A stretch of 64,000 nucleotides of DNA from a virus (Duplodnaviria > Heunggongvirae > Uroviricota > Caudoviricetes). The position numbers and the translations under genes are program-made. Location: IMG/VR virus record IMGVR_UViG_2880412407_000011. The stretch is one strand, 5' to 3'. Positions 40,349 to 45,384 of the stretch are shown here, in pieces; positions within the stretch are counted from its first letter, which is position 1, and each line of letters opens with the position of its first letter. The notes under the pieces are model-generated. The model did no database searches, had not been told where the DNA came from, and saw nothing but the letters and a program-made list of their open reading frames with translations.

Positions 40349-40903
40349 ATGATATACCCGGAAATTACAGGCAAAAGCGGTGAGCATTTACGCCTGAAAA
40401 CGCTGGAAAGTGTCTGGATCCAGGGGAAACTGCGTATGTGGGGGCGTTGGTCGTATATTGGCGACGGTAAGACGGGAAATATGTTCAACCAATTACTGAC
40501 CTCTAAAAAGCTGACAAAAACGGCAATTAACGAGGCGCTCCGGAGGATGAAAAAAGCGGGTCTGGACAAACCTGAACTTGAGGCTTTTTTGCGGGATATG
40601 ATCAACGGCAATCAAAAAAGCTGGCTGGCACATTGTACCGATTCAGAGGCGTTAATAATCGACAGGGTTATTGGTGAAGTACTGGCAGGTTATCCCGGGC
40701 TGCTCAATGTTCTGAGTCAGCGTTATGTGGGGCGGGGGATGACTAAGCGCAAAATGGCTGAATTGCTGAATGATGCACATCCGGAATGGAGTTTAAGAAC
40801 CTGTGAAAGACGCATTGAGCATTGGCTAAAGGTGGCAGAATTTATTTTGTACAAACCAATGGTTATGGCTTTTGGTATAGAGAAAAAAGTTATTGCTTTT
40901 TGA
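40349..40903 (+). CDS. late antiterminator Q-like protein
   Basis: 184 aa, immediately upstream of a strong terminator and the tRNA/lysis region; position diagnostic, sequence family not verified. Confidence 0.55.
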   Translation: MIYPEITGKSGEHLRLKTLESVWIQGKLRMWGRWSYIGDGKTGNMFNQLLTSKKLTKTAINEALRRMKKAGLDKPELEAFLRDMINGNQKSWLAHCTDSEALIIDRVIGEVLAGYPGLLNVLSQRYVGRGMTKRKMAELLNDAHPEWSLRTCERRIEHWLKVAEFILYKPMVMAFGIEKKVIAF

Positions 40904-40981
40904 CGTAAAAACTGCTTCAATTCCGGTAAGCTTCGCAAAGCTGTACCGCGAGGCGAATAGCAGACATGGACATTTGAAAGA

Positions 40982-41004
40982 GCCCGCTTTTTGCGGGTTT
41001 TTTT
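40982..41004 (+). terminator. tR'-like intrinsic terminator downstream of Q
   Basis: cccgc-TTTTT-gcggg hairpin followed by a 7-T run. Confidence 0.55.
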
Positions 41005-41127
41005 ATGACTGAAAAACGGCACGGGGCGTTAAACGCGCTGGTGGTTGCTAATACCGGTCTTTCAACTTGCTGGCTTTTTCGACAAGAGTTATTGGTATGT
41101 CACGTTAACCGGAAAAGGGAAAAAGAC

Positions 41128-41325
41128 ATGCTAAAACAGCAGGATATGACAGAAACCGCCAGAGTGGTGTTTAATGAATTAAGCGTTACCGACCCGGCGA
41201 CAGTCGGGGAGATTGCGCAGAATACTTACCTTTCACGCGAACGCTGCCAGTTAATACTGACCCAGCTGGTTATGGCGGGTCTGGCAGACTATCAGTGCGG
41301 TTGTTACAGACGCATTCAGTCCTGA
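41128..41325 (+). CDS. hypothetical small protein
   Basis: 65-aa ORF from MLKQQDMTETARV...; start uncertain. Confidence 0.3.
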   Translation: MLKQQDMTETARVVFNELSVTDPATVGEIAQNTYLSRERCQLILTQLVMAGLADYQCGCYRRIQS

Positions 41326-41460
41326 AGGCTTTTTATTTGTGGTAAATGGGCGGCTGGTGGGGGGGGCGGCACCTGTCAGTCCTTTGCTTATGTGTTGATG
41401 ATAATTTACCTTTTGGGGCTATAATTGAGCTAACCAATTGCTAATGAAAGTAAAATTATA

Positions 41461-42368: not shown

Positions 42369-42445
42369 TCGGTATTCTGCGTTGTTAGCTCAGCCGGACA
42401 GAGCAATTGCCTTCTAAGCAATCGGTCAGTGGTTCGACTCCACTA
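42369..42445 (+). tRNA. tRNA-Arg (anticodon UCU)
   Basis: 77 nt, acceptor GCGTTGT/ACAACGC, anticodon loop CTTCTAA, 3' CCA. Confidence 0.8.
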
Positions 42446-42624
42446 CAACGCGCCACACTTATTTTCCAGGCTCGCTTCGGCGGGCCTTTTTTGTATCTGC
42501 GCCACGCCCGGCGCATATCAACCACAGAGCCTTTCGGGGGTGAGCTTACGGAGTGGTCAGTGTGACTTTCTCTGTGGGCAGATCGCTCCCGGGCGTTGGC
42601 TCACCCACCCAAAGGAACGTCACG

Positions 42625-43056
42625 ATGTTTGGAATCTTCAAAAAGAAAACCCGCAGAGCGGCAGCGGAAATTAAAAAGTTTGAGAAACGCGATCTGGCAC
42701 AGGCGGTGATTAACGCTGCATACCTGGTGGCCTATGCAGATGGTGAATGCGAGGCATCCGAGAAAGCGAAGATCGAACAGGTCTTACGTAATCAGCCTGC
42801 GTTGTCTGCGTTTACCTCGGAAATTAATGCGATTAGCGCAACTATTATCGGTCAGCTGGATACCAATTTTAAAATTGGTCGTCGTGCCGCGTTACGCGAG
42901 ATTGAGGATGTGAAACACGATACGCGTGAAGCGGAAGATGTGCTGGATGTGGCGGTGGCCATTGCGGAGGCAGACGGCGAAATTGAGCCGGAAGAGCGCA
43001 AGGTGCTGGAAGAGATTGCCGGTGTTCTGGGTCTTCGTCTGGAGAATCACCTGTGA
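42625..43056 (+). CDS. TerB-like (tellurite-resistance TerB / DjlA N-domain-like) protein
   Basis: 143 aa from MFGIFKKK; amphipathic acidic helices, EAD/EPEE pattern typical of TerB; AAGGAA SD. Confidence 0.5.
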   Translation: MFGIFKKKTRRAAAEIKKFEKRDLAQAVINAAYLVAYADGECEASEKAKIEQVLRNQPALSAFTSEINAISATIIGQLDTNFKIGRRAALREIEDVKHDTREAEDVLDVAVAIAEADGEIEPEERKVLEEIAGVLGLRLENHL

Positions 43057-43220
43057 CGGTAAAACTGCGCCTGGCTGTGGCTGCACTCCTGCTGTTTCTG
43101 GTGGTGATGGTGGATTTCACCAGCAGAATCATGTCGGTGCTGGCGGATGGGGTGCTGGTCTGCGGCATTGTGGTATTGCTGTGGCCGGTGATAAAAAGAA
43201 ACAGCCTGCATAATGCTTGA
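43053..43220 (+). CDS. hypothetical small membrane protein, translationally coupled to the TerB-like gene
   Basis: 55-aa ORF (GTG start overlapping upstream TGA) with two hydrophobic segments. Confidence 0.3.
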   Translation: MTVKLRLAVAALLLFLVVMVDFTSRIMSVLADGVLVCGIVVLLWPVIKRNSLHNA

Positions 43221-43534
43221 TTTTTTTGTTTGCTGTTTATTAAAAACACTTCTGCATGGTGAATCCCCCTGTGCGGAGGGGCGATCAGCAACCAGGTATA
43301 TGGGATAATCGCGGATTCAGGTGCTGATACTGAATTCACCGGGAGGCACCCGGCACCATGCTTTGCCACAAAAGTGTTGTTTCTGTTTTTCTCAAACTAT
43401 CATCGTTATCCCTTTATTTCCGGCTGCGCATGGCGCGGCCTTTTTTTTACGACCAGCCACTGGCAGATGGTCATCCTGTGATTTGATTCCGGTTCCGGCT
43501 TTTTAACTCTGTTCCTGTACACGGGAGAAATTCG

Positions 43535-45384
43535 ATGTCGATTAAACATTATGATGTTGTCAGGGCGGCGTCGCCGTCAGACCTTGCGGAAAAGCTGACA
43601 CACAAACTGAAAGAGGGCTGGCAGCCGTTTGGTAGTCCGGTGGCCATAACCCCTTATACCCTGATGCAGGCGATTACAGCAGAAGGTGATGTGGTGGTCA
43701 GTGGTGCAACTGAGCCGGATTGGTACTACGTCATCGTACTGGCCGGGCAGTCCAATGCCATGGCTTACGGTGAAGGGCTTCCGCTGCCGGATTCATACGA
43801 TGCTCCGGATCCGCGCATTAAACAGCTGGCGCGCCGCAGTACAGTGACGCCGGGTGGGGCTGCCTGCAGATATAACGATATTATTCCGGCCGACCACTGC
43901 CTGCATGATGTGCAGGATATGAGTACGCTGAATCATCCGAAGGCAGACCTGAGCAAAGGGCAGTACGGCTGTGTCGGCCAGGGGTTACATATTGCCAAAA
44001 ACTGCTCCCGTATATCCCGAATAACGCGGGGATCCTGCTGGTACCATGCTGTCGTGGTGGTTCGGCATTTACCCAGGGCGCGGAGGGGACATTCAGTGCG
44101 GACACGGGGGCCAGCCAGGATTCGGCGCGCTGGGGTGTGGGTAAACCGTTATATCAGGACCTGATTGCGCGCACCAAAGCTGCATTACAGAAGAACCCGA
44201 AAAATGTGTTGCTGGCGGTGTGCTGGATGCAGGGAGAGTTTGACATGAGCGCCGCCACCCACGCACAGCAACCTGCGCTGTTTACAGCCATGCTGACACA
44301 GTTTCGTGCTGACCTCTCCGTGTTTAACGCGCAGTGCCATGGTGGCAGTGCTGCAGATGTGCCGTGGATTTGTGGTGACACGACGTATTACTGGAAAAAT
44401 ACATACGCTACCCAGTACGACACCGTGTACGGCGGGTATAAAAACAGGGAGAGTGAGGGCGTTTATTTTGTGCCCTTCATGACAGACGGTAACGGCGTCA
44501 ATACCGCCACTAACGCGCCGGCAGAAGATCCGGATATTCCGGCATCAGGATATTACGGTGCGGCATCGAGAACGAATGGAAACCAGGTATCATCAAACCG
44601 CCCGACACATTTCAGTTCATGGGCGCGCAGGAGCATTATTCCGGATCGTCTGGCAACCGCTATTCTGAACGCAGCCGGGCGCACCTCAGCCTTCATCAGT
44701 GGTAAGGCACCGGAAATCAAACCCTCGCCCGGCGGCAACACGCCATCGGGTCCGTCTGCAGATACGTCCGTTCGCACAATCTCCCTGCTGCCGGCAGCCG
44801 GAGAGGCTGCTGCGCAGGGCTGGAGCATTAAGGATGGCGGAATTCAGTTGTCAGATGGTGTATTTAAGATCACCAAGCAGAGCAATAAAACCTGGTCCCT
44901 GACGCATCCGGTGGATGACGCAATTACCCTGCTGACACAGGGCGGCAGACTGACCTGTAAGTTCCGCCTGTCAGGCGCACTGACCAACAATCAGTTCGGG
45001 CTGGGGATTTATCTGTATACGGATGCTCCCGTTCCTGATGGTGTGGCGATGACGGGTACCGGTAATCCGTTCCTGATGTCGTACTTCACTCAGACCACTG
45101 ACGGCAGAGTGAATCTGATGCATCACAGGAAAGCCGGAAACACGAAGCTGGGGGAGTTCGGCGATTACGGTAACGACTGGCAGACGCTGGAGCTGGTGTT
45201 CACCGCCGGCAGTGCCACGGTTACTCCGAAACTGAATGGAGTGGCTGGCCCGGCATTCCAGGTTATAAAAGACAGTCTGACACTGGGACTGAATGCGCTG
45301 ACGCTGACGGATGTTACAAAAAATGCAGCGTATGGCGTTGAGATAGAAAGTCTGGTGCTGGAGATAAATGCACCGGCAGCATAA
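43535..45384 (+). pseudogene. NanS-p-like sialate O-acetylesterase (DUF1737 + SGNH hydrolase), frameshifted
   Basis: Two overlapping ORFs (43535-44164, 44137-45384) join at an A5 run (43997-44001) where A6 would restore one frame; N-terminal DUF1737-like MSIKHYDVV..., esterase motif GQSN. Confidence 0.65.

Follow-up and report, generated by a model that had tools for sequence, protein, structure and literature searches.

Mosaic late region of a lambdoid prophage with tciA-tciB at the position of the Shiga-toxin genes

Introduction

In Shiga-toxin (Stx) phages, stx2 is expressed by read-through of RNA polymerase modified by the late antiterminator Q. What, then, does it mean when a late region with the layout of such a phage has other genes at the position of stx? 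The case considered here is the region from 40349 to 45384 of a stretch of 64,000 nucleotides (nt), below called the window, from the Caudoviricetes record IMGVR_UViG_2880412407_000011 of the IMG/VR database. In this region a Q-like gene, a terminator, the gene for an AraC-family regulator, two tRNA genes and the genes tciA and tciB (together tciAB) precede the esterase gene nanS-p and a lysis cassette. The original prediction, made from the sequence alone, saw in it the late region of Stx-converting phages with different cargo in the place of stx.

The answer given below is that the region very probably belongs to a non-Stx lambdoid prophage of the EDL933 OI-57/CP-933O type (OI, O island), in which it controls the late genes and serves as an insertion site for accessory genes ("morons"). 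It is made up of modules, and in it a regulator gene, psrB, would act in the lysogen and tciAB would be expressed by Q read-through. The observation behind the original prediction is right, and it is not novel: this prophage region is very common in enterohaemorrhagic Escherichia coli (EHEC), has been annotated before and has a characterised regulator. All its modules have previously been annotated in O157 Sakai, and the concept of the moron site, the small RNAs (sRNAs) and the TerB-containing synteny have all been published before.

Results

Gene order and identity of the locus

The locus was described from a list of open reading frames (ORFs), a tRNA scan and domain searches (Table 1). On the plus strand, rusA is followed by the Q-like gene, a terminator, an ORF of 65 amino acids (aa), the AraC gene, tRNA-Ile2(CAU), a decayed argN, tRNA-Arg(UCU) and a second terminator, and then by tciA overlapping tciB, an sRNA of the STnc100/PasD family, a third terminator, nanS-p and a lysis cassette of the phage-21 type. 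The elements that had been predicted, i.e., the order of Q-like gene, terminator, tRNA-Ile(CAU) and tRNA-Arg(UCU), nanS-p-like esterase and lysis cassette, the AraC-family regulator between the tR' terminator and the tRNA genes, and the TerB-like gene with a gene for a 55-aa membrane protein at 42625-43220, are all found where they had been placed or close by, and Pfam profile searches bear out the TerB, AraC, DUF1737 and SGNH/SASA assignments. With these domain E-values and with near-100% matches to many genomes, the features of the locus are far beyond chance.

The stretch 40300-45400 is ~100% identical to several O121:H19 E. coli chromosomes and 99.4% identical to O157:H7 EDL933. Of 5426 complete E. 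coli genomes, 367 contain 80% or more of this stretch, and the part from the AraC gene to tciB is by itself found in 489. Each of the five locus proteins that were queried is an exact member of a cluster, and these clusters occur on at least ~1000 contigs. In the O121 copy the RefSeq labels are, in order, DUF1133 protein, hypothetical protein, helix-turn-helix protein, tRNA-Ile, tRNA-Arg, "tellurite resistance TerB family protein", DUF3927 protein and SASA esterase.

Table 1. Features of the late region, with positions in the window and the evidence for each.
Feature	Position	Strand	Evidence
RusA Holliday-junction resolvase, last early gene	39981-40340	+	Pfam RusA E=5e-16; RusA in matching O121 record
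Q-like late antiterminator, DUF1133/Q21-related	40349-40903	+	Pfam DUF1133 E=3.7e-105; Phage_antitermQ PF06530 33.1 bits (cut-off 26)
Strong intrinsic terminator, tR' position	~40975-41006	+	13-base-pair (bp) hairpin then U7; 72-103 nt past Q stop codon
65-aa ORF, "TrmB family" or hypothetical in source records	41128-41325	+	PHROG 331 E=6.8e-37; coding sequence in O121 record
Sigma-70 promoter-like site before AraC gene	41398-41425	+	Perfect TATAAT -10; 10/12 consensus; consensus match only
AraC/XylS-family regulator, most probably PsrB (z2104)	41461-42174	+	HTH_AraC E=2.9e-13; HTH_18 E=2.4e-9
Promoter-like site just 5' of ileZ	42164-42192	+	Consensus scan
tRNA-Ile2 (CAU), = ileZ	42203-42278	+	ARAGORN; Rfam tRNA 72.5 bits
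Degenerate argN (tRNA-Arg UCG) remnant, pseudo-tRNA	42286-42365	+	Aligns with intact argN of Sp5 and Sp4; anticodon and T arms disrupted
tRNA-Arg (UCU), = argO	42379-42455	+	ARAGORN; Rfam 67.3 bits; aligns with Sakai argO genes
Intrinsic terminator after tRNA genes	42468-42493	+	8-bp GC-rich stem then U6; -14.9 kcal/mol, z=-3.5
tciA, 143-aa TerB-fold protein	42625-43056	+	Pfam TerB PF05099 E=2.9e-16, 60.2 bits (cut-off 24.4)
tciB, 55-aa protein, two hydrophobic helices	43053-43220	+	Pfam DUF3927 E=4.3e-17; PHROG 1470 "TciB-like" E=4e-30
STnc100/PasD-family prophage sRNA, between tciB and nanS-p	43225-43397	+	Rfam RF02076 104.7 bits (gathering 47)
Intrinsic terminator ahead of nanS-p, probably sRNA 3' end	43422-43448	+	8-bp stem, 7 GC pairs, then U8
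nanS-p, prophage sialate O-acetylesterase	43535-45384	+	Pfam DUF1737, SASA, DUF6645; two frames in window
P21-type holin	45831-46037	+	Pfam Phage_holin_2_1 E=1.2e-32
DUF1327/YdfR protein	46042-46386	+	Pfam DUF1327
Lysozyme	46437-46970	+	Pfam Phage_lysozyme
Antirepressor-like gene	47241-47795	+	
Rz	47952-48425	+	Pfam Phage_lysis

One slot for tciAB and stx2AB

The limits of the modules were obtained by pairwise BLAST against annotated late regions, and for the cargo they come from the Stx2 prophage Sp5 of Sakai. Window 42199-42503, which holds the tRNA genes and their terminator, aligns with ileZ-argN-argO of Sp5, and window 43236-43361 aligns with the DNA just past stx2B. From these flanks, which align on both sides of stx2AB at nucleotide resolution, follows that tciAB (~42504-43235, 732 bp) and stx2AB (1.37 kilobases, kb) are alternative inserts in one slot, as the notion of other cargo at the stx position implied. 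Late regions of the Sp5/933W type, in which nanS-p is followed by the lysis genes S-R-Rz, share with the window the cargo slot downstream of Q, with the tRNA block to its left and STnc100-family sequence and nanS-p to its right. They differ in that their cargo is stx2AB, their Q belongs to another family and they carry AsxR, whereas the window has tciAB, an extra psrB cassette 5' of the tRNA genes and a decayed argN; upstream of the tRNA genes blastn finds nothing in common between the window and Sp5. On the right side the likeness extends to the Stx1a phage Stx1_14040, which is 98.6% identical from window 43522 through nanS-p into the holin gene. Stx-like ORFs had been said to be absent, and when the A and B subunits of Stx1 and Stx2 are compared with the whole 64 kb by tblastn, the best E-value is 0.18. 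The gene identities, the module limits and the equivalence of the two inserts are established.

The synteny expected with Stx2 late regions holds for the slot, but the locus as a whole is syntenic with the non-Stx prophages EDL933 OI-57/CP-933O, Sakai Sp10 and Sakai Sp4. Since these are annotated and partly characterised, the interpretation was right but the finding is not new. With EDL933 OI-57/CP-933O, which carries psrB, and with the O121:H19 prophage, nucleotide identity is 99.4-100% over all 5.1 kb with identical gene order. RefSeq accessions are shared with the window for the AraC, Q-like and DUF3927 proteins, and a PerC/Pch-family gene comes after the lysis genes in the window and in the EDL933 OI-57-type prophage alike. 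There is no substantial difference from these two, save one-base homopolymer deletions in the window that are probably assembly errors.

In Sakai Sp10, the part from Q through the terminator (window 40348-41003) is 93% identical, and window 42189-43361 with the tRNA genes, tciAB and the 5' part of STnc100 is 99.5% identical, while window 41004-42188 with the 65-aa ORF and psrB is a 1.19-kb insertion relative to Sp10. Sp10 (ECs1958 Q, ileZ4, argO4, ECs1959 "TciA/TerB-like", ECs1961) has the same decayed argN, nanS-p and lysis genes; it carries AgvB after STnc100 and HnrS after Rz, and the window has neither. In Sakai Sp4, window 40993-42495 (65-aa ORF, psr gene, tRNA genes and terminator) is 92.5% identical, and the AraC gene lies directly 5' of ileZ in both, but tciAB is missing: Sp4 has 47 bp where the window has 42496-43234, and from 43235 on the two are homologous again. 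Sp4 has PsrA (ECs1087, 90% protein identity), an intact argN and a different Q gene.

The late region is, in other words, a mosaic of interchangeable modules that meet at conserved junctions. As proposed, it would consist of six of them: the Q21-like antiterminator with its tR'-like terminator; the 1.19-kb cassette of 65-aa ORF and AraC regulator PsrB; the tRNA block of ileZ, decayed argN and argO with its own terminator; the 732-bp tciA-tciB cassette; the STnc100/PasD-type sRNA; and nanS-p with the phage-21-type lysis cassette. A scan of IMG/VR adds 80 loci to the comparison, with a TciA identity of 97% or more and all from E. coli-type prophages; it shows shuffling within these and does not bear on a linkage to tRNA genes across phage families. 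Among 73 of these loci, a tRNA gene ends ~170 nt upstream of tciAB in 48, the 65-aa ORF is present in 40 (its exact protein occurs on at least ~1000 contigs), the Q type of the window is near in 21 and a psr-type AraC gene in 11. Downstream of tciAB, STnc100 is found at 40 of 47 loci and nanS-p at 42 of 47. The tciAB loci are a combinatorial shuffling of a fixed set of modules.

Late transcription and the expression of tciAB

The Q-like protein matches PHROG 753, "anti-termination protein Q-like" (E=5e-81), and is weakly similar to the solved Q21 protein 6P18 (E=4.8e-4); its gene has 93% DNA identity to the antiterminator gene ECs1958 of Sp10. The protein is Q21-like and not of the 933W type. 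The 109-nt stretch after Q has a folding energy of -37.6 kcal/mol (z=-3.77), and no shuffled sequence folds as well; its hairpin, at ~40975-41006, was missed by a simple consensus scan for terminators. Beside the Q-like gene no consensus promoter or Q-binding element was located, and the terminator and the downstream lysis cassette are present.

The tciAB pair lies between two intrinsic terminators, at 42468 and 43422, and a consensus scan finds no promoter-like site between argO and tciA. In phage P1, tciABC are downstream of the C1-repressed ban promoter, a location that implies expression in the lytic cycle. TciA-TciB pairs are further conserved in the Erwinia jumbo phage ChrisDB and the N4-like Salmonella phage SP-076, both of which belong to phage types that we take to be virulent. 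The lack of a promoter-like site, the upstream terminator, the location in the ban operon and the pairs in these presumably virulent phages together favour expression in lytic growth. From this we infer that tciAB is expressed in the lytic cycle through Q read-through; the promoter assignments, from consensus matches, are of the same kind. On prophage induction, tciAB would be expressed mainly when Q-modified RNA polymerase reads through, like stx2, and tciA and tciB would be translationally coupled, the GTG start of tciB overlapping the TGA stop of tciA in the sequence GTGA.

The AraC-family regulator

The promoter-like site ahead of the AraC gene is the best in an 8-kb scan and lies 36 nt 5' of the start codon. 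The regulator has a C-terminal AraC-type double helix-turn-helix domain, and its nearest solved structure is the DNA-binding domain of GadX (E=2.2e-18). It is 90% identical to Sakai ECs1087 (PsrA). It is also WP_000301797.1, the RefSeq accession of the copy at 1,906,697-1,907,410 in the EDL933 stock ATCC 43894, which falls inside the OI-57 coordinates in an otherwise matching prophage. According to two reviews, OI-57 in EDL933 spans 1,849,324-1,929,825, and PsrB (prophage-encoded secretion regulator B, z2104) of OI-57 is 90% identical to PsrA; ECs1087 is named psrA in a 2026 paper. Since the identity to PsrA agrees with the published figure and the accession is shared with a copy within OI-57, the regulator is, judged from its sequence, most probably PsrB.

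Reviews report that PsrA and PsrB raise the expression of GadE and YhiF and thereby repress type III secretion from the enterocyte effacement locus (LEE). They further report that PsrB binds the hdeA and gadE promoters, activates both and increases acid resistance, and that LEE type III secretion is repressed indirectly. The GadX-like DNA-binding domain fits this role of PsrB in acid resistance. With a promoter-like site of its own, psrB would act in the lysogen.

Directly past the lysis cassette, at 48888-49202 on the plus strand, there is a gene for a PerC/Pch-family regulator (Pfam PerC E=5.4e-44). With PsrB and Pch, the same prophage has both a repressor-arm and an activator-arm regulator of LEE type III secretion, and such pairing at psr loci has been noted in the literature.

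TciA and TciB

TciA matches PHROG 632 over its full length (E=1.7e-69) and is similar to the solved nuclear magnetic resonance structure 2JXU of Klebsiella TerB (E=4.4e-8); its Sakai homologue ECs1959 is annotated "TciA/TerB-like protein". TciB has two hydropathy peaks and aligns with TciB of P1, ChrisDB, SP-076 and phage 434. Neither the ORF list for 38000-49000 nor the annotated O121 record that matches the window contains a gene for TerZ, A, C, D or E; the TerB gene is followed only by tciB, and since the other ter genes are absent, tciAB is not a ter operon. As to a third gene, tciC, the reference records have no annotated ORF after tciB; no search with the P1 TciC sequence was made.

The localisation and function of the pair can be proposed as follows: TciA would be a TerB-fold protein that is cytoplasmic or amphitropic, TciB its membrane partner with two helices, and both would act at the inner membrane in lytic growth. 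Proteins with TerB domains include DjlA and components of the Shango, Bunzi and Dionysus defence systems, and by analogy with these a membrane-surveillance role for TciAB is conceivable. The best match in a PADLOC defence search is PDC-S48 (E=0.0035, 14.5 bits), with no stretch passing alone.

In P1, TciA is 42% identical over the full length and TciB 50%, tciB comes directly after tciA as in the window, and in both the pair adjoins tRNA genes, in P1 including tRNA-Ile2(CAU). The P1 pair differs in belonging to the C1-controlled ban operon of a phage-plasmid and in being followed by a third small gene, tciC; the P1 tci genes were scored as non-essential by CRISPR interference. The same tciAB cassette stands behind other Q genes in JLK-2012 (there after tRNA-Asn/Thr/Gly), Evi and PPyecE_EH1910, phage 434 retains only tciB, and TciA homologues without an annotated TciB are found in Pseudomonas and Vibrio phages.

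The vicinity of the pair to tRNA genes was seen in several of these phages, which are unrelated to one another. In P1, tciA-tciB lies between tRNA-Asn/Thr and tRNA-Ile2(CAU) (positions 1616-3276 of the P1 stretch). The ChrisDB pair lies within a tRNA cluster (positions 886-3277 of its stretch). The JLK-2012 pair follows tRNA-Asn/Thr/Gly (4792-5786 of its stretch), and homology to the window starts inside the 3' end of a tRNA gene. Within 1.5 kb of TciA no tRNA gene is present in Salmonella phage SP-076, Pseudomonas phage AF or Vibrio phage D505. A tendency of tciAB to adjoin phage tRNA genes is possible, and it is the only lead of any novelty that the locus offers.

The tRNA block, the sRNA and the lysis side

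ARAGORN calls the CAU tRNA Met, yet over its whole length it is without mismatch to ileZ as annotated (tRNA-Ile, cat) in Sakai Sp4, Sp5 and Sp10. The argN remnant at 42286-42365, also present in Sp10, has neither an ARAGORN call nor an Rfam match, and the T stem of argO carries a compensatory change relative to the Sakai argO genes. The terminator after the block, at 42468-42493, is conserved in Sp4, Sp5 and Sp10. The phage tRNAs would decode the rare codons AUA and AGA.

The 3' part of the Rfam model aligns poorly in the STnc100 match at 43225-43397. Rfam finds STnc100 together with the antisense RNA AsxR in Sp5, STnc100 together with the antisense RNA AgvB in Sp10, and STnc100 alone in the window, where neither anti-sRNA, AgvB or AsxR, is detected even at E<=0.1. 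The sRNA is placed just past stx2B in Sp5 and just past tciB in Sp10. STnc100 is related to PasD, and pasD lies upstream of the esterase gene, with pasA/pasC downstream (Zhu, Shabalina and Storz, 2026 preprint); the set of genes met most often around PasA/PasC is RusA, TerB and DUF1627 (Zhu, Shabalina and Storz 2026). The interval between nanS-p and the holin gene, where the 2026 Storz-laboratory preprint puts the PasA/PasC sRNAs, has in the window (45385-45830, plus strand) two terminator-like hairpins, one of which, at 45749-45785, has a stem of 11 bp and a U-run after it.

Another prophage sRNA, HnrS (EcOnc10-12), has been described in the late genes of Sp9, Sp10 and Sp12. The published stretch of 15 nt in which it is complementary to the mazF end places it on the minus strand just past Rz in Sp10 (~31940-31995 of the Sp10 stretch) and, likewise on the minus strand just past Rz, in an Stx1a phage (~11400-11460 of that phage's stretch); matches of 10 nt or longer are absent from the window.

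Surroundings of the locus

The early region contains a toxin-antitoxin locus of the hok/sok type at 37735-38059 on the plus strand, in which a sok RNA (Rfam 113.5 bits) overlaps a Hok/Gef ORF (Pfam E=1.1e-22), followed by a YgiW/BOF-family gene at 38179-38523. The first 24.7 kb of the window belong to a second lambdoid prophage in tandem, whose morphogenesis region they form, and are 99.996% identical to the O121 strain FWSEC0006. Window 24693-26002 is an extra segment of ~1.3 kb relative to that strain, and ~19730-20996 (1.3 kb) matches copies annotated as IS600 in its genome.

Discussion

Two other histories of the locus can be considered. According to one, it is a decayed Stx-converting prophage that has lost stx and does not represent a non-Stx phage type of its own. 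The DNA flanking the slot is indeed homologous to Stx2 and Stx1 phages, with 98.6% identity to an Stx1a phage from nanS-p to the holin gene, and repeated loss of stx has been raised as one possibility in a 2026 preprint. There is no stx remnant, however (the best tblastn E-value is the 0.18 given above), and the slot is filled by an intact alternative cassette that also stands behind the several Q genes of JLK-2012, Evi and PPyecE_EH1910 and in P1. When the Q21-like Q, which is not of the Sp5 type, the missing blastn match to Sp5 upstream of the tRNA genes and the stability of the same architecture across O157 and O121 are added, loss of stx becomes a highly unlikely origin. The other history concerns nanS-p, whose ORF is split over two frames (43535-44164 and 44137-45384), as it would be if the gene had become a pseudogene in the source strain and the late region were decaying. 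Yet in reference genomes the gene is intact (a single coding sequence of 1851 nt in the O121 record), and the sole difference in the window is one missing A, A6 to A5 at 43997-44001. Over 23 kb compared with the O121 reference there are ten single-base deletions, all within 43997-54207, nearly all in short same-base runs and all in one direction, while window 1-24692 has none; one, at 47790, makes the antirepressor-like ORF shorter. Deletions in such a pattern are typical of consensus error from long reads in repeated prophage DNA. Since the deletions fit such error, the split is probably an assembly artefact in a homopolymer run, and real decay of nanS-p is decidedly improbable.

The state of the phage in which tciAB works is a separate matter. 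The pair could be cargo for lysogenic conversion or defence, active in the prophage against superinfecting phage, colicins or tellurite, with a sensor of TerB type at the membrane and a small membrane effector. TerB domains are part of the validated defence systems Shango, Bunzi and Dionysus, and the cassette lies at a moron site known for genes and sRNAs that are expressed in the lysogen. This role is nonetheless unlikely: tciA has an intrinsic terminator directly upstream and no promoter-like site in the scan, the PADLOC match is marginal, terZ, A, C, D and E are lacking from the ORF list and the O121 annotation referred to above, and a lytic role is indicated by the homologous pairs in phages taken as virulent and by the place of the P1 pair in the C1-repressed ban operon.

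Several points weigh against the reading preferred here, i.e., that of an OI-57/CP-933O-type late region with psrB acting in the lysogen and tciAB expressed by Q read-through. Two consensus scans gave no convincing pR' promoter in the DNA that leads from the Q 3' end to the terminator, and antitermination is assumed for a Q protein that appears only distantly related to the characterised Q21. If the terminators are leaky, the psrB or tRNA promoters may drive some expression of tciAB in the lysogen. The assignment of PsrB is one from protein identity and genome coordinates, and the sources disagree on the prophage of psrA, which is OI-50 in the reviews and Sp4 in the 2026 paper. For TciA and TciB, no experimental test of function was found in the literature, and the P1 genes received the tci name "by homology".

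For annotation, the analysis has the practical consequence that the AraC gene should be labelled PsrB, the CAU tRNA Ile2 and the split of nanS-p a likely assembly error. For the evolution of Stx phages, the breakpoint map shows that stx2AB and tciAB alternate between identical flanks, which fits the model, already in the literature, of a recombinational "moron hotspot". The TciA-TciB pair is widespread in temperate phages and in phages taken as virulent. A speculative reading of what it does, to which we give little credence, is that TciA-TciB is an ancient, portable lytic-cycle module that couples a TerB-fold sensor to a membrane partner of two helices, that protects or conditions the inner membrane in infected cells, and that may travel with phage tRNA clusters. 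What such a module protects against may, for example, be triggers of abortive infection, superinfection or premature lysis. If this were true, a portable membrane-protecting module would, in EHEC prophages, be the alternative occupant of the slot that in other prophages holds stx.

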